Below are positions 7,725-44,095 of a stretch of DNA of 44,095 bases, in pieces. The position numbers were made by a program, and so were the translations under genes. Each line of letters begins with the position of its first letter. Within the stretch, counting starts at the first letter, position 1. The notes below the pieces were generated by a model that was given only the letters and a program-made list of their open reading frames with translations, did not search any database and had not been told where the DNA came from. This stretch comes from Nemertoderma westbladi (lineage: Eukaryota; Animalia; Xenacoelomorpha), in assembly GCA_032718475.1 (NCBI GenBank), contig JAUCBJ010003105.1:1-44095 (forward strand), in the 5' to 3' direction.

Positions 7725-7859
7725 GGTTGAAGAATCAAATTAAAGCGATATTGTTTAGACACTTATTAGACCTACCAATACAAGTAATGTAGGAGAGTCT
7801 GAGAGTATTCTTAGCGTCTGTTTTGGTATTTATAGTACACGAGTGGAGCCTTCCTGCAG

Positions 7860-16339: not shown

Positions 16340-16586
16340 TTCCAGGTGCTTTCAGACATTCTACGTTGGCGCGCCAGTAAGACTCCGGAACACGTGCTGT
16401 TTCAGCTTATTTCGCAGAAGGGCCTCGCCGTCCAATCAGCAACGTGCGCGTACCTACACCGCAGGGCAGAACGTATCGCATGCCTCCTAGTGGAAAAAGG
16501 ACGAACTCTCCCGGGCTCCCACGTGGCTCTGGTGTTCCCTCCAGGAATCGAACTTATTGCCAGTTTCTATGGGTGTCTATATCTCG
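16340..16586 (+). CDS. DIP2: DIP2 internal exon E (FQVLSDILRWRASKTPEHVLF...PPGIELIASFYGCLYLG), start of the second AMP-binding-like domain
   Basis: tgacag acceptor, gtaagt donor at 16587; LHRRAERIA and PPGIELIA.FYGCLY signatures. Confidence 0.93.
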
Positions 16587-17722
16587 GTAAGTGTACCGAG
16601 CTCATTACCAGTTTCTATGGGTGTCTATATCTCGGTAAGTGTACCGAGCTCATTACCAGTTTCTATGGGTGTCTATATCTCGGTAAGTGTACCGAGCTCA
16701 TTACCAGTTTCTATGGGTGTCTATATCTCGGTAAGTGTACCGAGCTCATTACCAGTTTCTATGGGTGTCTATATCTCGGTAAGTGTACCGAGCTCATTAC
16801 CAGTTTCTATGGGTGTCTATATCTCGGTAAGTGTACCGAGCTCATTACCAGTTTCTATGGGTGTCTATATCTCGGTAAGTGTACCGAGCTCATTACCAGT
16901 TTCTATGGGTGTCTATATCTCGGTAAGTGTACCGAGCTCATTACCAGTTTCTATGGGTGCCTATATCTCGGTAAGTGTACCGAGCTCATTACCAGTTTCT
17001 ATGGGTGTCTATATCTCGGTAAGTCTATCGAGCTCATTACCAGTTTCTATGGGTGTCTATATCTCGGTAAGTCTATCGAGCTCATTACCAGTTTCTATGG
17101 GTGTCTATATCTCGGTAAGTGTATCGAGCTCATTACCAGTTTCTATGGGTGTCTATATCTCGGTAAGTGTACCGAGCTCATTACCAGTTTCTATGGGTGT
17201 CTATATCTCGGTAAGTGTACCGAGCTCATTACCAGTTTCTATTGGTGCCTATATCTCGGTAAGTGTACCGAGCTCATTACCAGTTTCTATGGGTGTCTAT
17301 ATCTCGGTAAGTGTACCGAGCTCATTACCAGTTTCTATGGGTGTCTATATCTCGGTAAGTGTACCGAGCTCATTACCAGTTTCTATTGGTGCCTATATCT
17401 CGGTAGGTGTACCGAGCTCATTGCCAGTTTCTATGGGTGTCTATATCTCGGTAAGTGTACCGAGCTCATTACCAGTTTCTATTGGTGCCTATATCTCGGT
17501 AAGTGTACCGAGCTCATTACCAGTTTCTATGGGTGCCTATATCTCGGTAGGTGTACCGAGCTCATTACCAGTTTCTATGGGTGTCTATATCTCGGTAAGT
17601 GTACCGAGCTCATTACCAGTTTCTATGGGTGTCTATATCTCGGTAAGTGTACCGAGCTCATTACCAGTTTCTATGGGTGTCTATATCTCGGTAAGCGTAC
17701 CGAGCTCATTACCAGTTTCTAT
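16550..17722 (+). repeat. 48-bp minisatellite, ~24 copies, made of the last 37 nt of DIP2 exon E plus the first 11 nt of the intron
   Basis: Unit GTAAGTGTACCGAGCTCATTACCAGTTTCTATGGGTGTCTATATCTCG; donor-like sites every 48 nt from 16587 to 17691. Confidence 0.98.
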
Positions 17723-18380: not shown

Positions 18381-19907
18381 CTATAGTTCCTCGTGGAACT
18401 CTGTTGTCAGTTTGTCTAACTCGAGCGGCGGCAAATTGTCCTTACACACCGCTGGCGTGTGGAACACCATGTTGTACTCGCAACGACTGGGTTCGCTCGC
18501 TTCCCTCAGTTGGTTGTCCACCCCGCAGACAAGCTGCACCCTGGTAGACCGAGAGGGCCCGTTCCAGCAGGCCAACCCATCCTTGTAGACCATAGTGTCG
18601 TCCTCCCACGATCCCCAGCGCCCCAGACTGGTTTCGGAGCCGCCACTGGCCCCGGACTGTACGACCTTATCGAACGGACACAGTCTGTAGGTGTACTCCG
18701 CTGTGCTCAACTCGAAACATTGGCCTCGTAGCGGGAGGAACTCGTAATCGCCGCCGTGGTCCCCTTCAACCACCTTCTTTAGCTCTCGTAACTCAGTGTC
18801 CAACTGGTTTACCTTGCTCTCTATTTCTTTGTGATGGTTCCTAGCGGTGGTGGCAGCTTCCACTGCCAACTGCGTCTCTTCGTCGAACTCTTCTTCAGTC
18901 TCCTTAACCTCCCCCACTACCTCCCCGTCGTCCTGTTCCTCAGGTATATCCACATCATCGTCTTCTCCAACCCCCTTGTAGACGTGTTTCATATACTCCC
19001 ACACGTAGTCCCTAAAGTCGTCCCTGTTGACCTCCGTCAACCCTCCCATGTAGGACTCGGCCTCTTCAGCCGTCGTTTCTCCGTCGTCGTTTACGTCGAA
19101 GTCCGCTACCGACGTCACTTCGTCCACGGTAATCAACCCGTCACTGTTATCGTCTAACTCGTAAAAGGCCTCATCTACCTCATCTTTATCCACCTTCCCG
19201 GTATCTTTCTTTTTTTCACTCTTCTCTAATACTTTATCTACCGGTACCTCATCTGACTCTTTATTTAACTCATCTTTCTCCCTCTCTTCCTTCAGTTTAT
19301 CGAACTTCTCTTTGGCTTCCTTCTCTACGACTTCCGCCTCTTCCTTAGCTGTTGCCGCGGCCTCCAGCAGCCCTCTCTGCTCATCTAACTCCACTTCAAT
19401 ATCTTCCTTTCTCAGCAACCTTTTCTCGTGGATTATTTTTCCCTCCTTCTTGTACCGGAGTTTCACTTGGACTCCCTGTTTCTGGAGCTCGTAATAGGCC
19501 TGGCGTTTCCGCAACGACTCCATACCCAGTAGTCGGCATGAGTTCTCGCAACTGCCGACAGGTTCGTCCGATCCGTCGCAACAGTCGCAGATTGTGTCGC
19601 CGACTCGACTCGACGGGACGTATCGGCCTCGATGGCCGATGTTCTCGCAGTAGAATCGGCCTGCTGGACAGGCCGATGTCCCTGGTTCGTCGCTGGAATC
19701 CTTGCAGTCGCAATAATCGTCGTTGACTTTATCGAATTTTATTAAACCATTTCCATCATGGCAATAGAATTTCCCGCCATTGTTTTTGTACAGAGAGTAT
19801 CGGGTTGGTTCAACGCCATGTAGATGTGTAGGAACTCCGGTTGCTGGGTTAACCAATATAATTACTAGGAATGCTAGTCCATGAAATAAAATTGCTTGAT
19901 ATTGCAT
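18381..19907 (-). CDS. PRKCSH: Glucosidase II beta subunit (PRKCSH/80K-H), intronless, nested in a DIP2 intron
   Basis: Signal peptide; VNDDYCDCKDSSDEPGTSAC; CDCCDGSDE; EF-hand-like loops DDNSDGLIT and DVNDDGETT; acidic tract; MRH domain (EYTYRLCPF, CWNGPSRST, EPSRCEY); C-terminal HEEL ER-retention signal; AATAAA on the - strand near 18241-18254. Confidence 0.96.
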   Translation of the reverse strand: MQYQAILFHGLAFLVIILVNPATGVPTHLHGVEPTRYSLYKNNGGKFYCHDGNGLIKFDKVNDDYCDCKDSSDEPGTSACPAGRFYCENIGHRGRYVPSSRVGDTICDCCDGSDEPVGSCENSCRLLGMESLRKRQAYYELQKQGVQVKLRYKKEGKIIHEKRLLRKEDIEVELDEQRGLLEAAATAKEEAEVVEKEAKEKFDKLKEEREKDELNKESDEVPVDKVLEKSEKKKDTGKVDKDEVDEAFYELDDNSDGLITVDEVTSVADFDVNDDGETTAEEAESYMGGLTEVNRDDFRDYVWEYMKHVYKGVGEDDDVDIPEEQDDGEVVGEVKETEEEFDEETQLAVEAATTARNHHKEIESKVNQLDTELRELKKVVEGDHGGDYEFLPLRGQCFELSTAEYTYRLCPFDKVVQSGASGGSETSLGRWGSWEDDTMVYKDGLACWNGPSRSTRVQLVCGVDNQLREASEPSRCEYNMVFHTPAVCKDNLPPLELDKLTTEFHEEL

Positions 19908-20415
19908 TGTGTTGCAGTGTTGTACGCCAGGATAATTTAATACCTACCGAACAGATACCGGTACCGGTATTCAGGTATTGGACATAGACAGATAGACATA
20001 CGCGTAGGCCGTAACTCATCCGTATACAGTATACGTATACGATATACTGATATACTATACTACACTACAGCACTATGTCACCAGATCCACCCAAACGTCA
20101 CCACCATTATGTCGCCATATCCACCAAAGCCATTAGTATTAAATGAATGGTTAATTATAGTAAATAAATATAATATTATTAAGAAGTATTTTTGTTTAGA
20201 CGCCATTTGAATAGTATAAATACCAGTACAAACATCTGAACATAATAAATTGCAAAATATAGTTTACTGAGGTATATTTAAACTAATACGATTCAAACAT
20301 TGTCTGACTACCCATAATAAGCATGGAATTACCTATATATCCTATTGTAAAAGTTTCAGCCTACGCTAATTTTGCCTAATTCTCGGCTCCTGTATTAAAG
20401 GCCTTGTGCCTTGCC

Positions 20416-26257: not shown

Positions 26258-27565
26258 ATGGCAGTTAGTTTGTGCTCTAACATATTGCGATGCCAAAGTT
26301 ACAGAACGGGGAGCGGAACTGTGGGGTCTATCAGCCGACAGCGGCCTCTATCCCGCGGTGTCGGTACATCGTGGTGGTCCAACGTTGAGTTGGGACCCCC
26401 GGACCCCATACTGGGTGTCACCGAGGCCTTCAAACGGGACACCAACCCCAAGAAGATAAACCTCGGCGTCGGGGCCTATAGAGATGATTCTGGGAAACCT
26501 TTTGTGCTCCCGAGCGTTCGGGAAGCGGCACAAAGGCTTCACGAGGCCGATTTGGACCACGAATATCTCCCGATAACCGGGGACTCCGAGTTCTGCTCGG
26601 CGTCCCGGGAGCTAGCCTTCGGGGAGGAGGCGGCGGCGAGCGGACGCATCGTAACCGTGCAAGGGATATCCGGGACCGGGTCACTCCGCATCGGAGCCAA
26701 CTTCCTGCAAAAGTTCCACGCCGGGGACAAAAAGGTCTACCTGCCGGGCCCCAGTTGGGGCAACCACACGCCGATATTCGGGCACGCGGGGATGTCCGTA
26801 GGCTCCTACCGGTACTACGAGCCGTCGACCTGCGGGCTCGATCTATCCGGGTGTCTGTCGGATATATCGTCTATCCCTAAAGGTAGCGTGATCCTCCTGC
26901 ATGCGTGCGCGCACAATCCCACAGGGGTGGACCCCACACGCGAGCAGTGGCTCGCCATAGAGGCCGCCGTCAAGGAACGCGAGCTGTTTGTCTTCTTCGA
27001 TATGGCCTACCAGGGATTCGCTTCCGGTGATATCGATAACGACGCCTGGGCATTACGTCAGTTCGTTTCCGCCGGACATAACGTGGTGTTGGCGCAGAGT
27101 TACGCGAAGAATATGGGGCTGTACGGGGAGCGAATCGGGGCGTTTAGCGTGGTCGCCGTGGACGCAGATGAAGCGAAACGAGTTGAGTCGCAACTTAAGA
27201 TAATCGTTCGTCCGATGTATTCGAACCCCCCGCTTTCCGGGGCTCGCATCGCTAAGACGGTGCTCCGTGACGCGACGTTGAGGAAGCAGTGGTTGGCCGA
27301 CGTAAAGGGGATGGCCGATCGGATAATATCGATGCGTCAGCGATTGTCCGACGGGTTGGTGCGCGAGGGCTCCTCCCGCGGTTGGGAACACATCACCAAG
27401 CAGATCGGGATGTTCTGTTTCACGGGGTTGAACCCCGACCAGGTGGCCAGACTGACCGCAGACCACTCGGTTTATCTCACTAAGGACGGGCGGATATCTG
27501 TAGCTGGTCTATCCTCCACCAATGTAGACTACCTGGCCCACGCCATGCACCAGGTCACCAAGTGA
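26258..27565 (+). CDS. GOT2: Mitochondrial aspartate aminotransferase, intronless
   Basis: Arg/Ser-rich transit peptide, then [62 protein letters not shown]-lysine motif [15 protein letters not shown] and [12 protein letters not shown]; AATAAA at 27630. Confidence 0.97.
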
Positions 27566-28010: not shown

Positions 28011-29076
28011 ATACAGGTTACAGCATACAGGTTACAGCATACAGGTTACAGCATACAGGTTACAGCATACAGGTTACAGCATACAGGTTACAGCATACAG
28101 GTTACAGCATACAGGTTACAGCATACAGGTTACAGCATACAGGTTACAGCATACATGTTACAGCATACAGGTTACAGCATACAGGTTACAGCATACAGGT
28201 TACAGCATACAGGTTACAGCATACAGGTTACAGCAAACAGGTTACAGCATACAGGTTACAGCATACAGGTTACAACATACAGGTTACAGCATACAGGTTA
28301 CAACATACAGGTTACAGCATACAGGTTACAGCATACAGGTTACAGCAAACAAGTTACAGCAAACAGGTTACAGCATACAGGTTACAGCATACAGGTTACA
28401 GCATACAGGTTACAGCATACAGGTTACAGCATACAGGTTACAGCATACAGGTTACAGCATACAGGTTACAGCATACAGGTTACAGCATACAGGTTACAGC
28501 ATACAGGTTACAGCAAACAAGTTACAGCAAACAGGTTACAGCATACAGGTTACAGCATACAGGTTACAGCATACAGGTTACAGCATACAGGTTACAGCAT
28601 ACAGGTTACAGCAAACAAGTTACAGCAAACAAGTTACAGCAAACAGGTTACAGCATACAGGTTACAGCATACAGGTTACAGCATACAGGTTACAGCATAC
28701 AGGTTACAGCATACAGGTTACAGCATACAGGTTACAGCATACAGGTTACAGCATACAGGTTACAGCATACAGGTTACAGCATACAGGTTACAGCATACAG
28801 GTTACAGCATACAGGTTACAGCATACAGGTTACAGCATACAGGTTACAGCAAACAAGTTACAGCAAACAGGTTACAGCATACAGGTTACAACATACAGGT
28901 TACAGCATACAGGTTACAGCATACAGGTTACAGCAAACAGGTTACAGCAAACAAGTTACAGCAAACAGGTTACAGCATACAGGTTACAACATACAGGTTA
29001 CAGCATACAGGTTACAGCATACAGGTTACAGCAAACAGGTTACAGCAAACAGGTTACAGCATACAGGTTACAGCAT
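28011..29076 (+). repeat. 14-bp satellite (ACAGGTTACAGCAT), ~76 copies
   Basis: Direct periodicity. Confidence 0.98.
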
Positions 29077-29591
29077 GAGCATAGTGGTAGTAATTTGATT
29101 GTCAGAATATAATAATAATATATAAATATACCACCGCAAGGAAGTAACCAACCATTCGCAATACATAAATACGTAAACATTCGCAATACGTACCACGAAA
29201 AATAAAACTAAATATGGCGTGCAGAGTATACAAAAAAAAAGAAAAATATTTTAATTCTAAATAGTATCTAATATCTGTCCAAAGCACAATCAGGTAGCAA
29301 AGTATACAAAAATAAATCAATTAATTAATTATTTTAAGTATTATGTTATTATACGGTTATATTAAATATTTCACCCTAGATACGGACATTTATGTAGCGT
29401 TCGGGAAAAAAATAGACATGGAAATAAATAGTCGAGATAAATAAACTAGTTTACACAAAATACTACATTAAATTATATTATATACCATTGATTGATGCCA
29501 TCATTTTTGTAGCGTTAAAAAAATAGTGGAAAATAAAGGAGAGAAAGGGAGGGTGGCTCAGAGTTCATGTAGAGGTTAAGTTACCTCGAGG

Positions 29592-29741
29592 CACTGAAGG
29601 ATGTTGGCTGCATGGCGGTAGACTGGGGCGCTGAAGGATGTTGGCTGCATGGCGGTAGACTGGGGCGCTGAAGGATGTTGGCTGCATGGCCGTAGACTGG
29701 GGCGCTGAAGGATGTTGGCTGCAAGGCGGTAGACTGGGGCG
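29592..29741. repeat. 37-bp tandem repeat x4 (CGCTGAAGGATGTTGGCTGCATGGCGGTAGACTGGGG)
   Basis: CTGAAGG at 29594, 29631 and onward. Confidence 0.95.
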
Positions 29742-29978
29742 CAAGAGGCATTTAATATATGGATAGACTAATTCCACTGGCACCTATTTCCTGGGCCATT
29801 CGATTTCGTTCCGAGGAGCGGACACGACGGAACAACATGGTCCTCCGTCTGGACCTGGCCACATTTACAAAATAGGGTATACGGACGTGTCACGGGCTTG
29901 TTTTCATCCCTAGATTTTTCGGACGTGACTGGAGGCAAAATTTACATATGCGAGATTTACACATATACGTAGTAATAC

Positions 29979-32900
29979 GGCGTATACGTAAAACGGACAG
30001 CAGTTTACAGACAGGTTTGCGGACAGGTTTGCGGACAGGTTTGCAGACAGGTTTGCGGACAGGTTTGCGGACAGGTTTGCAGACAGGTTTGCGGACTGGT
30101 TTGAGGACAGGTTTGCGGATAGGGTTACGAACAGGTTTGCGGACTGGCTTGGTTTCAGAACCCCCCCCCCCCCCCCCCAGATACAAAACACAGAAGAACG
30201 CAGTAGAATGTAGGTAGGTAGGTAGGTAATTACAATTACAATGTATCTTACACTTTTTTTCTACTTATTCGCTTTTTGGTGTAGTAAGCATTTCAAAATG
30301 TTACTAAATCTTACTCTTTGTAAATCTTACTCTGTCTTCCAAGCCAGTACCCCCCCCCCCCCCCCTCTCCCTTAAGCTTATTAGCTTTAGCTTGGTATTA
30401 CGCTAAAGAACCTCAGCTTCAACAGTTGTGTATAGTTCGTCTAGCACAAGGTCTCATTCACATGCCTAAAGGTGCAATGATTCTTGAGTCCATATCATAT
30501 TGAACCGGGTTGGTCTGACGGGTTTACTTACTCTGACTCCTGGTTGCTTATCTCGAATGTAAAGGTCACAATTCTCGGAAAGTCTCACTTCCTCATCTAC
30601 CTCCTCCCAATCCGTCACAAGATGTTATGTGGGACCGAGGATGTAGCAGAATATGACGTCTTTCTGTCGCAAAAGCTTCCCTAAAGCTGCGGCAAGAAGC
30701 TAGTCAGTGTCATAAAAACATGTGACTCCCCCCCCCCCCCCCCCCCCCCCCCACTATCTTAGCGAAAACACTACAGGTTCGTGAAATAAATTGTTATGGT
30801 GTCCACAATCAGAAGAATGGGAAAATGGAAGAGGTGAAAATGTCAAAAAGGCAAGAGGCGACTGAACGTGGTGGCAAATTCGGGTTATATCGGGTTATTT
30901 TGTGAACAATGCACAGCATAATGGGTGTAGGTGTTGTTCCCATCACCATAACTCCATTCGTTATTTCAATAAACACGAATTCAAAACACTGACCATTGGA
31001 AAGCCCATACTCGATATAGTTGGGGTAGGCTAGCTGTTGTTCCCATAACCGTTGGTGCATTCGTTCTTGAAATGACACCCATAACAACCCGTTGCTATAG
31101 TAACACAAATTCAAACAATGACCATACCTAAATAAGTTAAACTGTCCGTAAACCTGTCTGCAAACCTGTCCGTAAACCTGTCCGTAAACCTGTCTGCAAA
31201 CCTGTCCGCAAACTTGTCCGCAAACCAGTCCTCAAACCTGTTCGCAAACCAGTCCGTAAACCTGTCCGCAAACCTGTCTGAAAACCTGTCTGCAAACCTG
31301 TCTGCAAACCAGTCCGCAAACCTGTCCGTAAACCTATCCGCAAACCTGTCCGCAAACCAGTCCGCAAACTTGTCCGCAAACCAGTCCTCAAACCTGTTCG
31401 CAAACCAGTCCGTAAACATGTCTGCAAACCTGTCCGTAAACCTGTCCGCAAACCTGTCCGTAAACCTGTCCGCAAACCTGTTCGTAAACCTATCCGCAAA
31501 CCTGTCCTCAAACCAGTCCGCAAACCTGTCTGCAAACCTGTCCGCAAACCTGTCCGCAAACCTGTCCTGCAAACCTGTCCGCAAACCTGTCCGTAAACCT
31601 GTCCGCAAACCTGTCCGTAAACGTGTCCGCAAACCTGTTCGTAAACCTGTCCGTAAAACCTGTCCGTAACACCTGTCCGCAAACCTGTCTGCAAACCGGT
31701 CCGCAAACCTGTCCGCAAACCTGTCCGCAAACCTGTCCTGCAAACCTGTCCGCAAACCTGTCCGTAAACCTGTCCGCAAACCTGTCCGTAAACGTGTCCG
31801 CAAACCTGTTCGTAAAGCTGTCCGTAAAAACTGTCCGTAACACTTGTCCGCAAACTTGTCTGTAAACCGGTCCGTAAACCTGTCCGCAAACCTGTCTGTA
31901 AGCCTGTCCGCAAACCAGTCCGTAAACCTGTCTGCAAACCTGTCCGTAAACCTGTCCGCAAACCTGTCCGTAAACCTGTCCTCAAACCTGTCTGCAAACC
32001 TGTCCGTAAACCTGTCCGTAAACCTGTCCGTAAACTTGTCTGCAAACCTGTCCGCAAACTTGTGCGCAAACCAGTCCTCAAACCTGTCCGTAAACCTGTC
32101 CGTAAACCTGTCCGTAAACCTGTCCGTAAACTTGTCTGCAAACCAGTCCTCAAACCTGTCCGTAAACCTTTCCGTAAACCTGTCTGCAAACCTGTCCGTA
32201 AACCTGTCTACAAACCTGTCTGCAAACCTGTCTGCAAACCTGTCCGTAAACCTGTCCGCAAACCTGTCTGCAAACTGTCCGTAAACCTGTCCGCAAACCT
32301 GTCCGTAAACCTGTCTGCAAACCTGTCCGCAAACCTGTCCGCAAACCTGTCCGTAAACCTGTCTGCAAACCTGTCCGCAAACTTGTCCGCAAACCAGTCC
32401 TCAAACCTGTTCGCAAACCAGTCCGTAAACATGTCTGCAAACCTGTCCGTAAACCTGTCCGCAAACCTGTCCGTAAACCTGTCCTCAAACCTGTCTGCAA
32501 ACCTGTCCGTAAACCTGTCCGTAAACCTGTCCGTAAACCTGTCTGCAAACCTGTCCGCAAACTTGTCCGCAAACCAGTCCTCAAACCTGTTCGCAAACCA
32601 GTCCGTAAACCTGTCTGCAAACCTGTCCGTAAACCTGTCCGCAAACCTGTCCGTAAACCTGTCCTCAAACCTGTCTGCAAACCTGTCCGTAAACCTGTCC
32701 GTAAACCTGTCCGTAAACTTGTCTGCAAACCTGTCCGCAAACTTGTGCGCAAACCAGTCCTCAAACCTGTCCGTAAACCTGTCCGTAAACCTGTCCGTAA
32801 ACTTGTCTGCAAACCAGTCCTCAAACCTGTCCGTAAACCTTTCCGTAAACCTGTCTGCAAACCTGTCCGTAAACCTATCTACAAACCTGTCTGCAAACCT

Positions 32901-33100
32901 GTCTGCAAACCTGTCCGTAAACCTGTCCGCAAACCTGTCTGCAAACTGTCCGTAAACCTGTCCGCAAACCTGTCCGTAAACCTGTCTGCAAACCTGTCCG
33001 CAAACCTGTCTGCAAACCTGTCCGTAAACCTGTCTGCAAACTATCTGTAAACCGGTCCGTAAACCTGTCCGTAAACTGCTGTCCGTTTTACTTTTACGCC
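29979..33100. mobile_element. Foldback-type element: ~30-bp TIRs with inverted subterminal 12-bp tandem arrays (short left, long right)
   Basis: GGCGTATACGTAAAACGGACAGCAGTTTAC versus GTAAACTGCTGTCCGTTTTACTTTTACGCC; (ACAGGTTTGCGG)n at ~30005-30150 and (AAACCTGTCCGY)n at ~31141-33075. Confidence 0.82.
31141..33075. repeat. 12-bp satellite (AAACCTGTCCGY), ~160 copies
   Basis: Direct periodicity; source of the many spurious repetitive ORFs here. Confidence 0.98.
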
Positions 33101-33214
33101 CATTTATAATATACAGTATATCTATAAATTATAAATTGCAGCAAATTGGTCATCGACTTGTTACTTTTTCTATAAAAAGGTATTCTCGAATATTGTAGCT
33201 AGTTCCAGCGTTTG

Positions 33215-33757
33215 TGTAACCTGTATGCTGTAACCTGTTCACTGTAACAGGTATATTGTAACTTGTTTGCTGTAACTTGTTTGCTGTAACCTGTATGCTG
33301 TAACGTGTATGCTGTAACCTGTATGCTGTAACCTGTTCACTGTAACCGGTATGTTGTAACTTGTTTGCTGTAACATGTATGCTATAACCTGTATGTTGTA
33401 ACTTGTATGCTGTAATCTGTTCACTGTAACCGGTATGTTGTAACTTGTTTGCTGTAACCTGTATGCTGTAACCTGTATGTTGTAACTTGTATGCTGTAAC
33501 CTGTTCACTGTAACCGGTATGTTGTAACTTGTTTTCTGTAACCTGTATGTTGTAACCTTTATGTTGTAACTTGTATGCTGTAACCTGTTCACTGTAACCG
33601 GTATGTTGTAACTTGTTTGCTGTAACATGTATGCTATAACCTGTATGTTGTAACTTGTATGCTGTAATCTGTTCACTGTAACCGGTATGTTGTAACTTGT
33701 TTGCTGTAACCTGTATGCTGTAACCTGTATGTTGTAACTTGTATGCTGTAACCTGTT
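33215..33757 (-). repeat. 14-bp satellite, inverted relative to 28011-29076, with 84-bp higher-order structure
   Basis: (TGTAACCTGTATGC)n; variant pattern CTGTTCACTGTAACCGGT recurs every 6 monomers. Confidence 0.95.
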
Positions 33758-34765
33758 TGTTCGCGCTTTCAGACCTTTAGCAGTTTAACCTGCCAATTTT
33801 AGGTGTCCTCTTGTTTATAAATCGACTTTAGCCTATAACAATTATTTAATGCACATGAAGTAACATTAGCCGAAGGCAGTCTATGCGCGATCATTCACCC
33901 ACAGTTAAGGGAGACTGGATTCGGGTGCTTTGAAGTTATTGCGTTGCAGACCTACTGTATTATTCGATTGATCGTTACTATATAATCTCTGACAATATTA
34001 TTCACTTTCGGGGAAATATTAACAGTTCCTTTAGGATGTGGCGTTTTAAGTATAAAACAGAGTTATGACTTATACTAAACACAACGAGATGGCTAATGAT
34101 TTTCGTAAATAGCGCATTCTTTAGGAGATGCTTTATTATCTGTCACACTACTGCACACGACTTCACACTGCTGCACACTGATCTGCCGACCGTCACTGAA
34201 TTTGACCATATATAAGGAGGATTGCAACTGACACATGTAGGGATTATGAAATAGCATTTAATGCACACTAAAACCACTGTAATGTAAGTCGCAATTGCTA
34301 CCGGTAACAGGTCCCTCTTACCTTCAGTAATCAAGAAGATTGGGGTTTTATGATTATTTATCGATATTCTCCAAATATAACAACATATCCATCAACATAT
34401 TACAATTAATAACAGACAGTAAAATAATGCAGTTTTGTTATACAGCAATGTTTCAGGTCAGATGTGTGACCGTAGATGAGTTGAGATAATAGATTTACAT
34501 TCTTATAATCAAAGCCGTCTAATGTTGGCCAAAGTCTGAAACTTCTAACACAGAAGTACAGAATAATTTCCAAGCAGTTGTTCTCGCTCAGAAAGGTAAA
34601 CAAAGACCGTAATGCATTGCACGGTTTTCCGTAGGCCTCTGTGCAAGATAAAATGAAAATCGCTCTGATTGGCCGAGCGAGCTGAACAAAGAAGTTCCAC
34701 ATCGGCAGTAAATCAGCTGACAGATTTCGTCATCTGAACTACACTCTATTTAGAGTATTTGGCGT

Positions 34766-34896
34766 ATTGCGGCATAAAATGGCTTGTTATGTCCGCTAAA
34801 ACACCTACAGGGTACATTGCGGAGAAAATGGCTTGTTATGTCCGCTAAAACAACTAAACAGTTCATTGCGGAGATAATGACTGGTTATATCTGCAA
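34766..34896. repeat. Three ~49-50-bp direct repeats downstream of the zinc-knuckle ORF (also at 40371-40501)
   Basis: ATTGCGG..AAAATGGCTTGTTATGTCCGCTAAAA at 34766, 34816 and (diverged) 34865. Confidence 0.85.
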
Positions 34897-34985
34897 AAGC
34901 TTTTACACCGCTCCCAGAAAATGGGATTTAATTCTATAAAATATAAAAAATCACAGTTTCTAAAATATAAAAATACTCTAAACAG

Positions 34986-35834
34986 TTAGTCTTTCTTACG
35001 CGAACGGCGTTTACGCAATTTTTTGAGGCTAGCAAGAGTCCTTTTCTCTTTGGGGCGAGCCACTTTACTAGGAGGGCTATAACTCCTGGGTGAAGGGTGC
35101 AATACAATTGCATCGGAAGGTTTAGGATTACGGTCGGTGTATCCGCCGGTCGAGGTACCCGGTTGATCGATATCAACCTCAGTGGAGTGAGGTCGAACAA
35201 CCTTCAGAGTGCGTTTCAGTACAGCAGCTCTTACTGGTCCCTGACGAGTCGTTTGCACGAGAGCGGTAGGTGGACCGTGAGTAGTGAGAAATTTCCTCGG
35301 TTTGATGGTTCTTTCTAACTCGCGTTCTCGGGCTCTATATTCATAGGGTCGTCTATGAACTTCCTGTAGCTCTGGATGCGAGTTGATGAACAAATCGCCA
35401 TATTCCGGATCTTGACGAATGAAGTTGATCAAGTTATAGGAATTAAGATCGTTGGGATTAATGTTCCTGAGATATTTACGAACAAATTTGGTTGAAATAC
35501 TCTCGCCAATACGCTTCATTAGTTCGTAACTCGGTGTGCGAGATTTTTGTTCAACAGACGCGAATAGATAAGGGTGGAATGCATAAACTCCTTCGTAGGC
35601 GCGTCCAGGGTAATAGCGATGACGTGACTCACAATGTAAATCCGCGTTCGCTTCCCAGGCTCGGATGTAGCGTAGGGTAATCATTTCATCTCCCTTTTCC
35701 AGATCGCGGTTGAAAGGGCAATCAAAACTTGCATGTCCTTTAAACTGACAATGATGGCATTGAGTCATAAATTGGGGGCAGACTGCGAAAATGTGCAAGT
35801 TATTGAGTCTACAATACGCACAATAGATCTCCAT
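34986..35834 (-). CDS. CCHC zinc-knuckle protein with basic C-terminus (copy 1); frame stays open upstream to 35993
   Basis: CAYCRLNNLHIFAVC and CHHCQFKGHASFDC; K/R-rich tail KKLRKRRSRKK; an upstream in-frame extension has CRLCASRDH...C. Confidence 0.65.
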   Translation of the reverse strand: MEIYCAYCRLNNLHIFAVCPQFMTQCHHCQFKGHASFDCPFNRDLEKGDEMITLRYIRAWEANADLHCESRHRYYPGRAYEGVYAFHPYLFASVEQKSRTPSYELMKRIGESISTKFVRKYLRNINPNDLNSYNLINFIRQDPEYGDLFINSHPELQEVHRRPYEYRARERELERTIKPRKFLTTHGPPTALVQTTRQGPVRAAVLKRTLKVVRPHSTEVDIDQPGTSTGGYTDRNPKPSDAIVLHPSPRSYSPPSKVARPKEKRTLASLKKLRKRRSRKKD

Positions 35835-35993
35835 TGTAGGCTGTTCATGGAAGTAGGAGCAGGGTACGTTGGAGTCTACAGGGGTGAAATGGTCTCGAGA
35901 TGCGCATAATCGGCAACGTTTCCTAGAGTCATAATTGGCATGCCGATAATCGTACGCGGTGAGACATTGTGGACCCTGATACCATTCTAGGAC

Positions 35994-38900
35994 TTAGTCG
36001 TTGTCACTGCTCCGAGGTGCGGTGGGCTGAATCTCCTCGGATTCTAAGCATATTGGTTCGTCTTCCAATTGCATAGCTGAGGTAGGTGTGGCTGTCTCCA
36101 CAAGCGAACCCAGTGTCTGAACTTCCACGATAGAATAACCCGTGGGGATTCGAGGTCTTTGTATAACAGAGGAATGTAAGTTCTGTATACAAACGTCCTT
36201 GAAAATGGCGAATCCAGCCCTGTCCAACTTCTCAGCAGCTGAGTCTCTTAGGCTGAGCTTGGTCAGAGCGCGGTCCTTGAACTGACTATCAACGTTACGG
36301 AACGGAGTCAGAAAGCGCCTGAAGCATTCGAAGCGGATGAATTTATTGTGTTCATCTAGCTTGGCGAGTTTGGTTCCAAGTATTAAGGGATGGGCGCATA
36401 TAGTTCGACTGCACACATCGGCTAGCCAACCGGCAAGTGCGGCGTTTTCGAAGATAGTGTATATAGCTAATGAGGGACGAAGTGGAACACTCATGAAGCT
36501 ATACACGATGCCAGGTGCGGTTAATGGTCCGTCAAAGTATAATCGAGAATAATGATCTCCATATACTTGTTGATAGTTGATAGGGTTTCCGACTTTGAAA
36601 TTCCATCCGTATTCTTGAAAGGCAAGATGTCCGATGGAAGTTCGTTGTACTTTATTGATGCCGCTGGGTGTATTGGCATACATAGTTCGGAAGAAACCTC
36701 GGCCTTCTGCCCAGGGAGCAATCAGCTGAGTATCTACGAAAAGATAAGGGATATTCTCCATGTTCCTAAAGTCGTTTTGGAGATCTCCATAAACAGCTGA
36801 GCCGATTTTAAGGATTCTTTCGTTAAACAACATCTCAAGCACGGGCTGAGGTAACATCGATCCATCGATACCCATGGCCGGTTTGCGCTCGGTGTCGGTG
36901 ACGTAACGCTGCGCGAGTTCGAATTGTCCATGTCGGAGTTTCTTTTGTATCTCGGTGAGGGTCTCAAAAGAATAATCAATCACGTCGGAACACGCTCGAG
37001 TAAACACGTGGGTAGAACCAGCTAGTCCTCGTATATGTATCATGCGCGTAGTTCCCAGTTCTCCAACCGGAACGCTACCTTCGTTATCGTATGTGACAAC
37101 TCCATACATTTCGATAACGTTAAGAGTTTCATTCCACTCTTTAGTGGCGTTTTCTAGGGTCATCCCCACTGGATGCCACAAGGTGGCGCATTCGCTAGCG
37201 TTAGGTAGATCCCTATACTTCAGATACTGTGTAGTATACGTCTCTACATCTCCATATCGTTGTATTCTCTCCTCCTCGAATAACACGTCGAGATTCCAGT
37301 GGACTAATCGAGTTTTGATAAATCCATCGAGATTATACGGAGGTATTATATCCTTCTCTATTCTGGAAACATTGTAGGGTTTTCGGAATGAGTTTACTTT
37401 CACTAACTGATCCAGATGTTTCTGCAGTTGTTCGAGTTCGACAAGATCGAGAGGATTTATTAGTGGTAGAAACCTTAGACTATGTGTAGGATCTTCCGGT
37501 TTTACCATGTAATATTGAGTTAGATTGACATAATAAGGGTGATCTTTGATCCCATAAAACGAGTTTGGTAAAGATCTGGCGCGTATGTTGACCTCATGTA
37601 CCATACGACGGACAAGATCCGCTCGATTGTCCGGAGGTTGAACGAGTATACCGTCGACACGAGCGGCCTCGATTGGCGGACGCTGTAACATAGGAGCGTC
37701 AGCGATAAGATCTCGAGATCTTAGGTTGATATCAACCGGTTGGGGTTGTACCGTTGCAAAGAGTTTGTCTCCGAAATGGGGAACCATCGATGGATGAATG
37801 ATGGTTTTGGAGTAGAGATCCGTCATAAGGATTTGAGCTTCGGGTTGGGCTAAAGCTGCTTCTTCTCTTTCATCCATTTCGATGTGTTTCTCCTCGAGCT
37901 GATTTTCCTCCGCTTGTCGTTGTAAGCGTTCGTCTAAAAACTCTTGTAGAGAATAGGTTCGTCCAAGTTCGATATCTTCCTCGAGGTTCTGGATTTCTCG
38001 ATCGAACTGGGGTAAGGCGAACTCCTTCACCGCTTGGACTTGTTGCTGCAATTTGCGTTTCTCTAAACAATCATAAGTTCCTTTTCCTATCTTCTGCCGA
38101 ATAGCGTCTAACGCATTTCGTACAACGCTCTCCTCGACTTCGGTGACGGGTTGTATCGGGGTTAACCCAGGACGATTGTATGGGTTGAACAGCGATATTA
38201 GATGTCCGCATCCTAATCCGGCTAGGTAGGATGGGCGAATATCTAGCGAGCCCACTACCGGAGTGCCACCGATTAATTGTTCGGGTAACACAAGATCTTT
38301 GAATAGTGAATACAGTTCAGGAGGATCCGTTATACTATTAGGATCAAGAGTTTGAGGTCTCACTAGGGAATGAGGAGGTCTGACCGAATATTCCGGAACT
38401 CTGATCATGGGTTTATTCAAGGATCGTTTGAGGCAAGCGATCGTAGGTGATACGTCAAACAAGTTTCGCTCGAAACTCCCATAAGTATAGCGAGTAAAAC
38501 TGTGTTTAGCGCAACGTCTCCGCGGATGTTTATGTCTTTCCGTTTGTTGGTTGGGTCTAAGGCATTCATCGCAATAATACCAAAGACACACGTCCTGTAG
38601 AGGAAACGCGGGTGACCGCTCTCCAATTTTACAATATTCCTCCATCTGTTCGAAGCTATCCGGGACAACAGGTAGCGGTCGATCGGCGGTAAGATACATC
38701 ATAGTGAAATAGAGCCGTTTGAGTTCTATCATAGGGTCATGATGTATACCTTGAGGATATCGAGTTTCTAGATTTTGTTGGCTGGCAATATTGAGATATG
38801 TTTCTCTCAAGAATTCCAGATATTCGTTGAAGTCACTGCGTTTATCCGGCTCTTCAACGTCTTCTCCTTCGAGTCGGTTTCGAATAGAATTATCGTGTTC

Positions 38901-39131
38901 GATTCTCGGTTTATCGTTCCGACTCCGCTGGGTATGATATTTAAAGATAACCATTTCCCTTTCGGTGTCTACATCGTCCGTATCGTGTAAATCGATAGGA
39001 TGGCCAGTAGTTAAGAAGTCCATATACGTACCATTACGATGCGTATAGCGAGCGGTGAATTTTCTATAGTCCAATTCACGTGTGAGTTGTTCCTTGGACA
39101 TTGGTGGTTCGATATAACGGCCATCGGCCAT
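35994..39131 (-). CDS. Uncharacterised 1045-aa protein (from first ATG, MADGRY) with Cys/His cluster, coiled coil and putative DEDDy 3'-5' exonuclease-like domain (copy 1)
   Basis: Non-repetitive ORF over 3 kb; VVTYDNEG (ExoI-like), LPQPVLEMLFNERILKIGSAVYGD (ExoII-like, WRN/EXD type), FVDTQLIA, SIGHLAFQEYG, and RPSLAIYTIFE (degenerate ExoIII). Confidence 0.72.
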   Translation of the reverse strand: MADGRYIEPPMSKEQLTRELDYRKFTARYTHRNGTYMDFLTTGHPIDLHDTDDVDTEREMVIFKYHTQRSRNDKPRIEHDNSIRNRLEGEDVEEPDKRSDFNEYLEFLRETYLNIASQQNLETRYPQGIHHDPMIELKRLYFTMMYLTADRPLPVVPDSFEQMEEYCKIGERSPAFPLQDVCLWYYCDECLRPNQQTERHKHPRRRCAKHSFTRYTYGSFERNLFDVSPTIACLKRSLNKPMIRVPEYSVRPPHSLVRPQTLDPNSITDPPELYSLFKDLVLPEQLIGGTPVVGSLDIRPSYLAGLGCGHLISLFNPYNRPGLTPIQPVTEVEESVVRNALDAIRQKIGKGTYDCLEKRKLQQQVQAVKEFALPQFDREIQNLEEDIELGRTYSLQEFLDERLQRQAEENQLEEKHIEMDEREEAALAQPEAQILMTDLYSKTIIHPSMVPHFGDKLFATVQPQPVDINLRSRDLIADAPMLQRPPIEAARVDGILVQPPDNRADLVRRMVHEVNIRARSLPNSFYGIKDHPYYVNLTQYYMVKPEDPTHSLRFLPLINPLDLVELEQLQKHLDQLVKVNSFRKPYNVSRIEKDIIPPYNLDGFIKTRLVHWNLDVLFEEERIQRYGDVETYTTQYLKYRDLPNASECATLWHPVGMTLENATKEWNETLNVIEMYGVVTYDNEGSVPVGELGTTRMIHIRGLAGSTHVFTRACSDVIDYSFETLTEIQKKLRHGQFELAQRYVTDTERKPAMGIDGSMLPQPVLEMLFNERILKIGSAVYGDLQNDFRNMENIPYLFVDTQLIAPWAEGRGFFRTMYANTPSGINKVQRTSIGHLAFQEYGWNFKVGNPINYQQVYGDHYSRLYFDGPLTAPGIVYSFMSVPLRPSLAIYTIFENAALAGWLADVCSRTICAHPLILGTKLAKLDEHNKFIRFECFRRFLTPFRNVDSQFKDRALTKLSLRDSAAEKLDRAGFAIFKDVCIQNLHSSVIQRPRIPTGYSIVEVQTLGSLVETATPTSAMQLEDEPICLESEEIQPTAPRSSDND

Positions 39132-40590
39132 AAATAACGGCCATAAATAAAACTGACAGAAATAAATAAGCTCTAAAAGAAACAAGGGGTATACTGTCCC
39201 TAATCTCTTAAACAGCCTACCAATATACAATATCACAATCGAAATAATACTGGTACCAGTAAGTACCGGTTCGGGTGGTTAGGTAGTTAGGCCTACAGGT
39301 TACCGTCCGACCGGTACAGTCGAATTTATTGCCTACGTGCAATCAAAACAAAAATATATTATTGTTCGCGCTTTCAGACCTTTAGCAGTTTAACCTGCCA
39401 ATTTTAGGTGTCCTCTTGTTTATAAATCGACTTTAGCCTATAACAATTATTTAATGCACATGAAGTAACATTAGCCGAAGCCAGTCTATGCGCGATCATT
39501 CACCCACATTTAAGGGAGACTGAATTCGGGTGCTTTGAAGTTATTGCGTTGCAGACCTACTGTATTATTCGATTGATCGTTACTATATAATCTCTGACAA
39601 TATTATTCACTTTCGGGGAAATATTAACTGTTCCTTTAGGACGTGGCGCTTTAAGTATAAAACAGAGTTATGACTTATACTAAACACAATGAGATGGCTA
39701 ATGATTTTCGTAAATAGCGCATTCTTTAGGAGATGCTTTATTATCTGTCACACTACTGCACACGACTTCACACTGCTGCACACTGATCTGCCGACCGTCA
39801 CTGAATTTGACCATATATAAGGAGGATAGTAACTGACACATGTAGGGATTATGAAATAGCATTTAATGCACACTAAAACCACTGTAATGTAAGTTGCAAT
39901 TGCTACCGGTAACAGGTCCCTCTTACCTTCAGTAATCAAGAAGATTGGGGTTTTATGATTATTTATCGATATTCTCCAAATATAACAACATATCCATCAA
40001 CATATTACAATTAATAACAGACAGTAAAATAATGCAGTTTTATTATACAGCAATGTTTCAGGTCAGATGTGTGACCGTAGATGAGTTGAGATATTAGATT
40101 TACGTTCTTATAATCAAAGCCGTCTAATGTTGGCCAAAGTCTGAAACTTCTAACACAGAAGTACAGAATAATTTCCAAGCAGTTGTTCTCGCTCAGAAAG
40201 GTAAACAAAGACCTTAATGCATTGCGCGCTTTTCCGTAGGCCTCTGTGCAAGATAAAATGAAAATCGCTCTGATTGGCCGAGCGAGCTGAACAAAGAAGT
40301 TCCACATCGACAGTAAATCAGCTGACAGATTTCGTCATCTGAACTACACTCTATTTAGAGTATTTGGCGTATTGCGGCATAAAATGGCTTGTTATGTCCG
40401 CTAAAACACCTACAGGGTACATTGCGGAGAAAATGGCTTGTTATGTCCGCTAAAACAACTAAACAGTTCATTGCGGAGAAAATGACTGGTTATATCTGCA
40501 AAAGCTTTTACACCGCTCCCAGAAAATGGGATTTAATTCTATAAAATATAAAAAATCACAGTTTCTAAAATATAAAAATACTCTAAACAG

Positions 40591-41439
40591 TTAGTCTTTC
40601 TTACGCGAACAGCGTTTACGCAATTTTTTGAGGCTAGCAAGAGTCCTTTTCTCTTTGGGGCGAGCCACTTTACTAGGAGGGCTATAACTCCTGGGTGAAG
40701 GGTGCAATACAATTGCATCGGAAGGTTTAGGATTACGGTCGGTGTATCCGCCGGTCGAGGTACCCGGTTGATCGATATCAACCTCAGTGGAGTGAGGTCG
40801 AACAACCTTCAGAGTACGTTTCAGTACAGCAGCTCTTACTGGTCCCTGACGAGTCGTTTGCACGAGAGCGGTAGGTGGACCGTGAGTAGTGAGAAATTTC
40901 CTCGGTTTGATGGTTCTTTCTAACTCGCGTTCTCGGGCTCTATATTCATAGGGTCGTCTATGAACTTCCTGTAGCTCTGGATGCGAGTTGATGAACAAAT
41001 CGCCATATTCCGGATCTTGACGAATGAAGTTGATCAAGTTATAGGAATTAAGATCGTTGGGATTAATGTTCCTGAGATATTTACGAACAAATTTGGTTGA
41101 AATACTCTCCCCAACACGCTTCATTAGTTCGTAACTCGGTGTGCGAGATTTTTGTTCAACAGACGCGAATAGATAAGGGTGGAACGCATAAACTCCTTCG
41201 TAGGCGCGTCCAGGGTAATAGCGATGACGTGACTCACAATGTAAATCCGCGTTCGCTTCCCAGGCTCGGATGTAGCGTAGGGTAATCATTTCATCTCCCT
41301 TTTCCAGATCGCGGTTGAAAGGGCAATCAAAACTTGCATGTCCTTTAAACTGACAATGATGGCATTGAGTCATAAATTGGGGGCAGACTGCGAAAATGTG
41401 CAAGTTATTGAGTCTACAATACGCACAATAGATCTCCAT
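40591..41439 (-). CDS. CCHC zinc-knuckle protein (copy 2)
   Basis: Differs from copy 1 at 2 residues (I>V, R>C). Confidence 0.65.
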   Translation of the reverse strand: MEIYCAYCRLNNLHIFAVCPQFMTQCHHCQFKGHASFDCPFNRDLEKGDEMITLRYIRAWEANADLHCESRHRYYPGRAYEGVYAFHPYLFASVEQKSRTPSYELMKRVGESISTKFVRKYLRNINPNDLNSYNLINFIRQDPEYGDLFINSHPELQEVHRRPYEYRARERELERTIKPRKFLTTHGPPTALVQTTRQGPVRAAVLKRTLKVVRPHSTEVDIDQPGTSTGGYTDRNPKPSDAIVLHPSPRSYSPPSKVARPKEKRTLASLKKLRKRCSRKKD

Positions 41440-41598
41440 TGTAGGCTGTTCATGGAAGTAGGAGCAGGGTACGTTGGAGTCTACAGGGGTGAAATGGTCT
41501 CGAGATGCGCATAATCGGCAACGTTTCCTAGAGTCATAATTGGCATGCCGATAATCGTACGCGGTGAGACATTGTGGACCCTGATACCATTCTAGGAC

Positions 41599-44095
41599 TT
41601 AGTCGTTGTCACTGCTCCGAGGTGCGGTGGGCTGAATCTCCTCGGATTCTAAGCATATTGGTTCGTCTTCCAATTGCATAGCTGAGGTAGGTGTGGCTGT
41701 CTCCACAAGCGAACCCAGTGTCTGAACTTCCACGATAGAATAACCCGTGGGGATTCGAGGTCTTTGTATAACAGAGGAATGTAAGTTCTGTATACAAACG
41801 TCCTTGAAAATGGCGAATCCAGCGCTGTCCAACTTCTCAGCAGCTGAGTCTCTTAGGCTGAGCTTGGTCAGAGCGCGGTCCTTGAACTGACTATCAACGT
41901 TACGGAACGGAGTCAGAAAGCGCCTGAAGCATTCGAAGCGGATGAATTTATTGTGTTCATCTAGCTTGGCGAGTTTGGTTCCAAGTATTAAGGGATGGGC
42001 GCATATAGTACGACTGCACACATCGGCTAGCCAACCGGCAAGTGCGGCGTTTTCGAAGATAGTGTATATAGCTAATGAGGGACGAAGTGGAACACTCATG
42101 AAGCTATACACGATGCCAGGTGCGGTTAATGGTCCGTCAAAGTATAATCGAGAATAATGATCTCCATATACTTGTTGATAGTTGATAGGGTTTCCGACTT
42201 TGAAATTCCATCCGTATTCTTGAAAGGCAAGATGTCCGATGGAAGTTCGTTGTACTTTATTGATGCCGCTGGGTGTATTGGCATACATAGTTCGGAAGAA
42301 ACCTCGGCCTTCTGCCCAGGGAGCAATCAGCTGAGTATCTACGAAAGGATAAGGGATATTCTCCATGTTCCTAAAGTCGTTTTGGAGATCTCCATAAACA
42401 GCTGAGCCGATTTTAAGGATTCTTTCGTTAAACAACATCTCGAGCACGGGCTGAGGTAACATCGATCCATCGATACCCATGGCCGGTTTGCGCTCGGTGT
42501 CGGTGACGTAACGCTGCGCAAGTTCGAATTGTCCATGTCGGAGTTTCTTTTGTATCTCGGTGAGGGTCTCAAAAGAATAATCAATCACGTCGGAACACGC
42601 TCGAGTAAACACGTGGGTAGAACCAGCTAGTCCTCGTATATGTATCATGCGCGTAGTTCCCAGTTCTCCAACCGGAACGCTACCTTCGTTATCGTAAGTG
42701 ACAACTCCATACATTTCGATAACGTTAAGAGTTTCGTTCCACTCTTTAGTGGCGTTTTCTAGGGTCATCCCCACTGGATGCCACAAGGTGGCACATTCGC
42801 TAGCGTTAGGTAGATCCCTATACTTCAGATACTGTGTAGTATACGTCTCTACATCTCCATATCGTTGTATTCTCTCCTCCTCGAATAACACGTCGAGATT
42901 CCAGTGGACTAATGGAGTTTTGATAAATCCATCGAGATTATACGGAGGTATTATATCCTTCTCTATTCTGGAAACATTGTAGGGTTTTCGGAATGAGTTT
43001 ACTTTCACTAACTGATCCAGATGTTTCTGCAGTTGTTCGAGTTCGACAAGATCGAGAGGATTTATTAGTGGTAGAAACCTTAGACTATGTGTAGGATCTT
43101 CCGGTTTTACCATGTAATATTGAGTTAGATTGACATAATAAGGGTGATCTTTGATCCCATAAAACGAGTTTGGTAAAGATCTGGCGCGTATGTTGACCTC
43201 ATGTACCATACGACGGACAAGATCCGCTCGATTGTCCGGAGGTTCAACGAGTATACCGTCGACACGAGCGGCCTCGATTGGCGGACGCTGTAACATAGGA
43301 GCGTCAGCGATAAGATCTCGAGATCTTAGGTTGATATCAACCGGTTGGGGTTGTACCGTTGCAAAGAGTTTGTCTCCGAAATGGGGAACCATCGATGGAT
43401 GAATGATGGTTTTGGAGTAGAGATCCGTCATAAGGATTTGAGCTTCGGGTTGGGCTAAAGCTGCTTCTTCTCTTTCATCCATTTCGATGTGTTTCTCCTC
43501 GAGCTGATTTTCCTCCGCTTGTCGTTGTAAGCGTTCGTCTAAAAACTCTTGTAGAGAATAGGTTCGTCCAAGTTCGATATCTTCCTCGAGGTTCTGGATT
43601 TCTCGATCGAACTGGGGTAAGGCCAACTCCTTCACCGCTTGGACTTGTTGCTGCAATTTGCGTTTCTCTAAACAATCATAAGTTCCTTTTCCTATCTTCT
43701 GCCGAATAGCGTCTAACGCATTTCGTACAACGCTCTCCTCGACTTCGGTGACGGGTTGTATCGGGGTTAACCCAGGATGATTGTATGGGTTGAACAGCGA
43801 TATTAGATGTCCGCATCCTAATCCGGCTAGGTAGGATGGGCGAATATCTAGCGAGCCCACTACCGGAGTGCCACCGATTAATTGTTCGGGTAACACAAGA
43901 TCTTTGAATAGTGAATACAGTTCAGGAGGATCCGTTATACTATTAGGATCAAGAGTTTGAGGTCTCACTAGGGAATGAGGAGGTCTGACCGAATATTCCG
44001 GAACTCTGATCATGGGTTTATTCAAGGATCGTTTGAGGCAAGCGATCGTAGGTGATACGTCAAACAAGTTTCGCTCGAAACTCCCATAAGTATAG
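41599..44095 (-). CDS. Exonuclease-like long ORF (copy 2), 5' part outside the window
   Basis: Same protein as copy 1 with 6 visible amino-acid differences. Confidence 0.72.
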   Translation of the reverse strand, partial: YTYGSFERNLFDVSPTIACLKRSLNKPMIRVPEYSVRPPHSLVRPQTLDPNSITDPPELYSLFKDLVLPEQLIGGTPVVGSLDIRPSYLAGLGCGHLISLFNPYNHPGLTPIQPVTEVEESVVRNALDAIRQKIGKGTYDCLEKRKLQQQVQAVKELALPQFDREIQNLEEDIELGRTYSLQEFLDERLQRQAEENQLEEKHIEMDEREEAALAQPEAQILMTDLYSKTIIHPSMVPHFGDKLFATVQPQPVDINLRSRDLIADAPMLQRPPIEAARVDGILVEPPDNRADLVRRMVHEVNIRARSLPNSFYGIKDHPYYVNLTQYYMVKPEDPTHSLRFLPLINPLDLVELEQLQKHLDQLVKVNSFRKPYNVSRIEKDIIPPYNLDGFIKTPLVHWNLDVLFEEERIQRYGDVETYTTQYLKYRDLPNASECATLWHPVGMTLENATKEWNETLNVIEMYGVVTYDNEGSVPVGELGTTRMIHIRGLAGSTHVFTRACSDVIDYSFETLTEIQKKLRHGQFELAQRYVTDTERKPAMGIDGSMLPQPVLEMLFNERILKIGSAVYGDLQNDFRNMENIPYPFVDTQLIAPWAEGRGFFRTMYANTPSGINKVQRTSIGHLAFQEYGWNFKVGNPINYQQVYGDHYSRLYFDGPLTAPGIVYSFMSVPLRPSLAIYTIFENAALAGWLADVCSRTICAHPLILGTKLAKLDEHNKFIRFECFRRFLTPFRNVDSQFKDRALTKLSLRDSAAEKLDSAGFAIFKDVCIQNLHSSVIQRPRIPTGYSIVEVQTLGSLVETATPTSAMQLEDEPICLESEEIQPTAPRSSDND

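Follow-up and report, generated by a model that had tools for sequence, protein, structure and literature searches.

The window analysed here is a stretch of 44,095 nucleotides from the xenacoelomorph Nemertoderma westbladi (GenBank assembly GCA_032718475.1, contig JAUCBJ010003105.1, positions 1 to 44,095 of the forward strand), and the subject of this report is a head-to-tail protein-coding repeat at its right end. The units were delimited by blastn comparison of the window with itself and have a period of 5605 bp (Table 1). Unit 1 is complete and unit 2 covers 4734 bases to the window end; the two share 99.26% identity with 35 substitutions and zero gaps, which confirms the near-identical abutting copies described in an initial annotation of this DNA. 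No third copy was found elsewhere in the window by blastn. On the minus strand, unit 1 holds an open reading frame (ORF) at 35994–39278, of 1094 residues stop to stop and 1045 residues from the ATG at 39131, and, in the same frame immediately behind its stop codon, an ORF with zinc knuckles (34986–35993, 335 codons). The long ORF had been recognized in the initial annotation, but its length had been given as 1080 residues. The non-coding part of each unit measures 1229 bp, in keeping with the approximately 1.2 kb first estimated; the three repeats of approximately 50 bp placed within it proved to be 2.5 copies of a 49-bp repeat. At the left border of the array, three bases (33757–33759) are compatible with both the adjoining minisatellite and the unit, and this is the only array end in the window.

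Table 1. Features of the tandem repeat and its left border (window coordinates; residues are those of the long ORF).
Feature	Position	Strand	Evidence
Repeat unit 1 (5605 bp)	33757..39361	-	blastn self-comparison
Repeat unit 2, cut by window end	39362..44095	-	blastn self-comparison
14-bp minisatellite adjoining left border of array	33215..33759	.	
Putative TATA-like box, legible on either strand	34207..34216	.	motif scan
49-bp direct repeat, 2.5 copies, weak hairpins (z about -2)	34766..34888	.	self-comparison, folding
Family reading frame, about 1,380 codons; first ATG 39131, second 39101; one stop here	34986..39131	-	
Premature stop in both window copies (second copy 41599-41601)	35994..35996	-	absent from all aligned contigs, four runs
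Three zinc knuckles: atypical (35859-35915), C-x2-C-x5-H-x4-C (35778-35822), canonical CCHC (35718-35759)	35718..35915	-	
Predicted WRN-type DEDDy 3'-5' exonuclease, residues ~700-960	36399..37181	-	profiles, ESM Atlas, by-eye alignment
ExoI, D730/E732	37077-37100	-	by eye against Fig. S1 of PMC3706591
ExoII, D832	36783-36809	-	RNase D profiles
ExoIII, Y940/E944, Glu replacing last Asp	36438-36461	-	by eye against Fig. S1 of PMC3706591
Stretch rich in Glu and Gln, residues ~405-480; likely coiled coil, judged by composition	37839..38066	-	
N-terminal Cys/His cluster, residues 231-259, putative metal-binding	38502..38588	-	Pfam CEBP_ZZ, E = 0.016, far short of cut-off
Second hairpin upstream of ORF, z -3.05	~39160-39225	-	folding against shuffles
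Long hairpin upstream of ORF, z -3.3 (+) / -3.2 (-); best window of scan	39263..39317	.	folding against shuffles
Unit-to-unit junction; both short Dada-U1 end motifs, reverse layout	39337..39369	.	

The family reading frame

Contigs of four public sequencing runs (X1, X3, X4 and X5) were aligned to the window; the stretch was present in five of seven runs, from four studies. X5 is labelled as another organism, has copies about 85–90% alike and may be a mixed sample. At the third base of the stop codon (35994) a sense codon was found in all of the aligned depth of the four runs (35189/35189, 34082/34082, 2952.6/2952.6 and 8.58/8.58). Around the stop, 24 of 35 variable places are third codon positions (p = 2e-5), as are 14 of the 21 that lie from the stop to the first ATG following it (p = 0.002) and 24 of 34 in a second set of coding places; these counts were taken from the best 40 of 45 and the best 40 of 1545 rows. 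Because every aligned contig has a sense codon at 35994 and the third-position bias runs across the stop, the family has a single frame. It encodes one protein of approximately 1,380 residues, kept by purifying selection and interrupted in both window copies. The two separate ORFs of the initial annotation are one frame in the rest of the family. Stop-codon read-through and a second gene were also considered, and were dropped on account of the sense codon in all four runs.

Between units 1 and 2 there are nine silent and eight replacement differences (pN/pS 0.26, p = 0.006), and differences are rarer in coding sequence (17 in about 3500 positions) than in non-coding sequence (18 in 1229; p = 0.001). 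The two copies thus differ mostly at silent sites despite both bearing the stop, which may therefore leave the gene functional in this genome. The bias would be accounted for by gene conversion with intact copies as donors, or by tolerance of the stop. The subfamily in the window differs from the four runs at further places besides the stop, and its copies therefore probably come from another individual or population. A possible short intron was noted in the 5' leader of the ORF, at about 39145–39220.

Predicted domains and homologue searches

Residues 700–960, approximately, are predicted with high confidence to adopt a diverged exonuclease (DnaQ-type) fold. RNase D profiles of 5, 20 and 25 sequences, which were not chosen as hits, scored residues 811–855 at 11.0–11.7 bits, a level reached by none of 500 shuffles and none of 500 window shuffles. 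A search of 301 proteobacterial genomes gave 27 weak matches at E <= 1; three of the best ten are RNase D, and a fourth, lower match overlaps a PF01612 match, such genes occurring about two to three times per genome. Clusters of PF01612 were top-ranked in the ESM Atlas, at 0.92. The DEDDy-type exonuclease proposed in the initial annotation agrees with these three sources, each of them weak, and is to be read as a prediction. The same holds for exonuclease activity, the last catalytic Asp being replaced by Glu944. WRN-type exonucleases act on DNA or RNA. In a by-eye comparison with Fig. S1 of PMC3706591, residues 810–836 agree with each of the two Laccaria Dada rows at 11 of 27 positions, with WRN at 8, and with RNase D and the Ectocarpus Dada row at 7. 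A role in or against host silencing through small RNAs, as had been suggested, gained no support here; by eye, ExoII most resembles the WRN-type exonucleases carried by transposons.

Several results weigh against the exonuclease assignment. The ESM Atlas match shares 154 of 256 features, below the 170 usual for same-family matches, and Pfam PF01612 was not detected in the unit protein. A mixed profile of 39 sequences scored -0.2 bits, with 6/500 and 4/500 shuffles equally high; an NrnC-like profile gave no match and the hhalign probability was 20.6%. Alignment with RNase D in MAFFT set ExoI and ExoIII in another register than the by-eye placement. The predicted local distance difference test (pLDDT) values of two single-sequence AlphaFold models were 29 and 39, too low for the fold to be read.

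Exonucleases of giant-virus-dominated clusters make up 24 of the 30 ESM Atlas matches, which is no sign of transfer in itself; a search seeded with a giant-virus exonuclease yielded neither viral relatives nor a significant pairwise match. A giant-virus record filed among phages (L004, BTJB01000001.1) was seen to encode an exonuclease; among solved structures, its best relative is Egalitarian (E = 6e-19).

The zinc knuckles reported initially were recovered by motif scan and by Pfam zf-CCHC_3 on the knuckle region (E = 0.00036, short of its cut-off). Residues 50–640 had no ESM Atlas match. In a set of 5.8 billion sequences, with each search confined to a length window, no homologue was found among 7622 candidates for residues 600–1094, 775 for the exonuclease piece and 419 for the knuckle part. 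There were none at E <= 0.001 among 1.84 billion representatives, none in IMG/VR, JGI metagenomes, PDB sequences or NCBIfam, and none in six exact sequence look-ups. The best relevant match in PHROGs was an exonuclease family at E = 0.16; phages gave two chance matches at E = 4 and plasmids none. At the level of sequence, the unit protein is an orphan in the databases searched.

Copy number, variants and surroundings

Contigs matching 32800–44095 numbered 30,796 in X1 and 10,845 in X3; most were 90–99% alike, and together they covered the whole unit and the junction. Single contigs of X3 had depths of up to 6000 and 3334, against about 30–57 for single-variant contigs. A crude floor for the copy number, calculated as summed depth divided by 31 (overlap in the worst case) and by the upper depth of single-variant contigs, was 63–243 for exonuclease-bearing copies and 229–675 for the 5' part of the ORF; these values give an order of magnitude, as summed depth is not a copy number. 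The family is large and diverse, likely with many dozens to hundreds of copies, and comprises many subfamilies at 85–99% identity plus abundant exonuclease-less variants. The initial idea of a multi-copy, selfish-element-like family is well matched by tens of thousands of contigs and these diverse variants.

Two deletion joints stand out by depth. The joint 36066–38872 has a depth of 2918 in X4, with its loose end also in X3 and X5 and at 36065 in X1, and the joint 40943–43484 has a depth of about 1900 in X1 and X3. Both deletions (2805 and 2535 bases) take out the exonuclease and preserve the frame; of the low-depth joints, the two with known length are out of frame. One contig joint of X3 falls exactly on the unit boundary at 39362, and in X5 homology runs on by eye across the unit junction. 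A loose end at 39359 in X5 was considered as an element end and dropped, its sequence being homologous to the window by eye. In all four runs depth drops about tenfold at 34308–34684 and 39963–40339, with common loose ends near 34893; the subfamilies seem to differ in this non-coding stretch.

The minisatellite at the array border is part of a larger arrangement. Minisatellites of 14 bp and 12 bp occupy 28011–30144 and 31142–33759 in mirror order and opposite orientation; the two arms are about 88% complementary and fold-back-like, the right arm ending at the array border. Other minisatellites in the window have periods of 53 bp (3548–5019), 26 bp (11676–14301), 48 bp (16560–17722) and 37 bp (29594–29742).

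Origin of the family

The initial annotation had reported no recognizable mobility enzyme, and motif, Pfam, terminal-repeat and Rfam scans were likewise empty. In the full frame, with X at the stop, no YxDD, HUH, GIY-YIG, Walker A or protease motif was found; eight fragments of the unit protein had no Pfam transposase match. Searches for terminal inverted repeats (TIRs) and long terminal repeats (LTRs) gave only chance-length matches in the unit. No tRNA was found in the unit, and the 3 and 7 weak Rfam matches were all far below gathering scores. Helitrons are marked by an HUH Rep/helicase or by TC...hairpin-CTRR ends; the unit has neither HUH nor Walker A motif and no CTRR/TC at the junction. 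LTR elements are marked by LTRs, a primer-binding site and a polypurine tract; no direct terminal repeat was found within the unit and no primer-binding site by eye, and an array of units sharing one LTR would look alike. A Penelope-like reverse transcriptase was not found in the unit, nor were the hammerhead ribozyme and pseudo-LTR of Penelope-like elements (Rfam, core-motif scan). Naiads also lack hammerheads, so the absence leaves mobilization in trans possible. The lack of introns, noted earlier, is uninformative, since introns are also missing from three ordinary host genes in the window. These encode an IIGP-type GTPase (6447–7724, -), glucosidase II beta (18381–19907, -) and a class I/II aminotransferase (26258–27565, +) and may be nested in introns of a larger gene; an isolated exon at about 9970–10110 (+) is presumably DIP2-like.

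The family is probably a selfish mobile element of some kind. As to its type, we tentatively prefer a high-copy non-autonomous element that could be copied via RNA by the enzyme of a helper retroelement and then multiplied locally as DNA. Read-through transcription of the array would give unit-length RNA, which the protein would bind through its knuckles and trim at the 3' ends. A helper reverse transcriptase, from a Penelope-like or long interspersed nuclear element (LINE) elsewhere in the genome, would insert an RNA copy, here beside the minisatellite. Short variants would keep both protein ends in frame since translation in cis aids them. Arrays would enlarge by local DNA duplication, which would produce two neighbours with a common private stop. 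The RNA route is favoured because of the knuckles, the LINE-like base composition, the in-frame short variants, the DEDDy ORFs of bdelloid retroelements and the existence of head-to-tail non-autonomous Penelope-like elements. The G+C fraction at third codon positions is 0.43 in the unit, 0.41 in the LINE of the window and 0.50–0.72 in the three host genes; the LINE ORF (135–2762, -; 875 residues) is open and has endonuclease and reverse transcriptase domains.

The unit resembles the bdelloid Vesta and Juno LTR elements and Athena Terminons, which carry a DEDDy exonuclease and coiled coil as accessories, in its predicted exonuclease, likely coiled coil and head-to-tail arrays, and the acidic motif is altered in both, to DEED in the bdelloid retroelements and, as placed by eye, DEDE in the unit (PMC5408684, PMC6431247). 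It differs from them in having no reverse transcriptase, hammerhead or telomeric repeat and in the fusion of exonuclease and knuckles in one frame. With the HeT-A-type telomeric elements that carry only ORF1 it shares a single ORF without reverse transcriptase, CCHC knuckles, head-to-tail layout and a long 3' non-coding part (PMC13534243, PMC10088271); in contrast to these it has a predicted exonuclease, and no poly(A), Gag homology or 5'-truncation gradient was found in it.

A number of observations weigh against copying via RNA. Neither a helper element nor a poly(A) tail, a hammerhead core or a pseudo-LTR was found, and the non-coding part of the unit shares nothing significant with the sole LINE in the window. 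The in-frame argument sets two deletion events against two and is a hint. The 5' and 3' parts of the ORF both have high depth, with no rise towards the 3' end; this is unlike 5'-truncated retrocopies, and high ends with a low middle fit internally deleted DNA transposons at least equally well. No pile-up of loose ends was seen at the unit boundary among the best rows of X1 or X3, a result that speaks for arrays rather than for single copies scattered through the genome. The X3 joint at 39362 spans undetermined letters and has up to a 10% probability of arising by chance among 56 joints.

A Dada-like DNA transposon or its descendant, with a DDE transposase too diverged or lost, is a close rival though somewhat unlikely; here the exonuclease would trim DNA ends left by cleavage, and copies would insert side by side. 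Dada was compared through published descriptions, motif spacings and the rows of Fig. S1. Dada elements measure 4.7–11 kb and are free of TIRs; they are found in tandem, have derivatives with internal deletions and encode proteins of approximately 1,400 residues, which in Laccaria and Ectocarpus include a DEDDy domain (Kojima and Jurka 2013, PMC3706591). The unit matches these traits, the exonuclease as a prediction. Residues 810–836 are closest by eye to the Laccaria rows, the second ESM Atlas match is a Basidiomycota cluster, depth is high at the ORF ends and the junction carries both short Dada-U1 motifs, 20 bases apart. However, the two motifs stand in the reverse of the Dada-U1 layout. 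D/CxxH matches occur only at residues 256, 596 and 1110, with none between the exonuclease and 1110, so that no DDE/DxxH core was found, a very diverged one being possible; transposase searches in Pfam and the ESM Atlas search of residues 50–640 were empty. The fingers differ in spacing and place, with no C-terminal C-x2-C-x9-H-x8-C finger and no complete N-terminal CCCC finger, and three Gag-like knuckles are not among the Dada features described in the portions of PMC3706591 available. Dada hallmarks also include insertion into small nuclear RNA (snRNA) or tRNA genes, a 6–7-bp duplication and sub-terminal inverted repeats (PMC3706591); no snRNA or tRNA fragment was found at the borders, the second array end lying beyond the window, and the unit further differs in its large arrays. 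Among other DNA transposons, KolobokD has a DnaQ-type exonuclease as cargo and KolobokP forms tandem multimers, both like the unit (PMC9587614).

Another close rival, also unlikely, is a rapidly evolving host gene that encodes an RNA-trimming nuclease with exonuclease and knuckles, possibly a germline defence or drive gene, and that became a macrosatellite by unequal exchange or circle re-integration. Strong purifying selection fits such a gene, as do the lack of dispersed ends in the best rows of the run contigs and the homology seen by eye across the junction in X5. Short motifs upstream of the unit ORF (39200–39320) recur upstream of two host genes (19940–19970 and 7765–7780). RNase D of Trypanosoma brucei (TbRND) likewise combines a DEDD exonuclease and a zinc finger, which lies at the C terminus and assists in binding RNA (PMC7797062); unlike the unit it is cellular, of approximately 350 residues and non-repeat, and no similarity was detected in searches of PDB sequences. 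Against a host gene stand the many subfamilies at 85–99% identity with their abundant exonuclease-less variants, the lack of an orthologue in the 1.84 billion representatives or the 5.8-billion set, the transposon-like base composition and an array border within a minisatellite.

A new class of animal selfish DNA, with the nuclease as its only enzyme, is improbable. Its arrays would spread by directing either recombination of the host or replication of circles and would need neither a transposase nor a reverse transcriptase, be it in cis or in trans; nuclease-less variants, still in frame, would ride along.

It is very improbable that a small circular virus or plasmid-like replicon was integrated here as a concatemer: the head-to-tail layout and the giant-virus-dominated exonuclease clusters would suit this, but no capsid or viral relative was found to support the virus-like character first proposed, no Rep, helicase or polymerase was found in the unit, nothing was found in IMG/VR, JGI metagenomes, phages or plasmids, and the variants resemble a long-resident genomic family. 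Equally remote is an assembly artefact or the cargo of a larger known transposon with its enzymes past the window end, for which the right end of the array, outside the window, leaves room; the copies abut exactly, their differences are selection-biased and depth is high family-wide over the whole unit and junction in independent studies. Haplotype duplication, raised in the initial annotation itself, was rejected in view of the skew of the 35 differences to silent sites and the very high depth in independent runs.

Returning to a selfish element as the preferred reading, the repeat could be assigned to no family tested, and each of its parts (exonuclease cargo, knuckles, enzyme-less tandem elements) has precedents. 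The initial annotation, sound in its multi-copy reading, had omitted that Dada and KolobokD DNA transposons and bdelloid retroelements are already described as carrying DEDD exonucleases. No description of such an element was found in the literature searched, Repbase and most subscription journals being outside its coverage.

A large share of invertebrate repeats is unclassified. In the accessible portions of the sources, the roles of exonuclease cargo in Dada, KolobokD and bdelloid retroelements are proposals so far. With an element in which an exonuclease is the only predicted enzyme, the role of such cargo becomes testable, and what comes to light may be a helper, a transposase so diverged that present profiles miss it, or a means of spread that needs neither. 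If the array is instead a host gene, it would be an unusually large amplification of a nucleic-acid-trimming enzyme.

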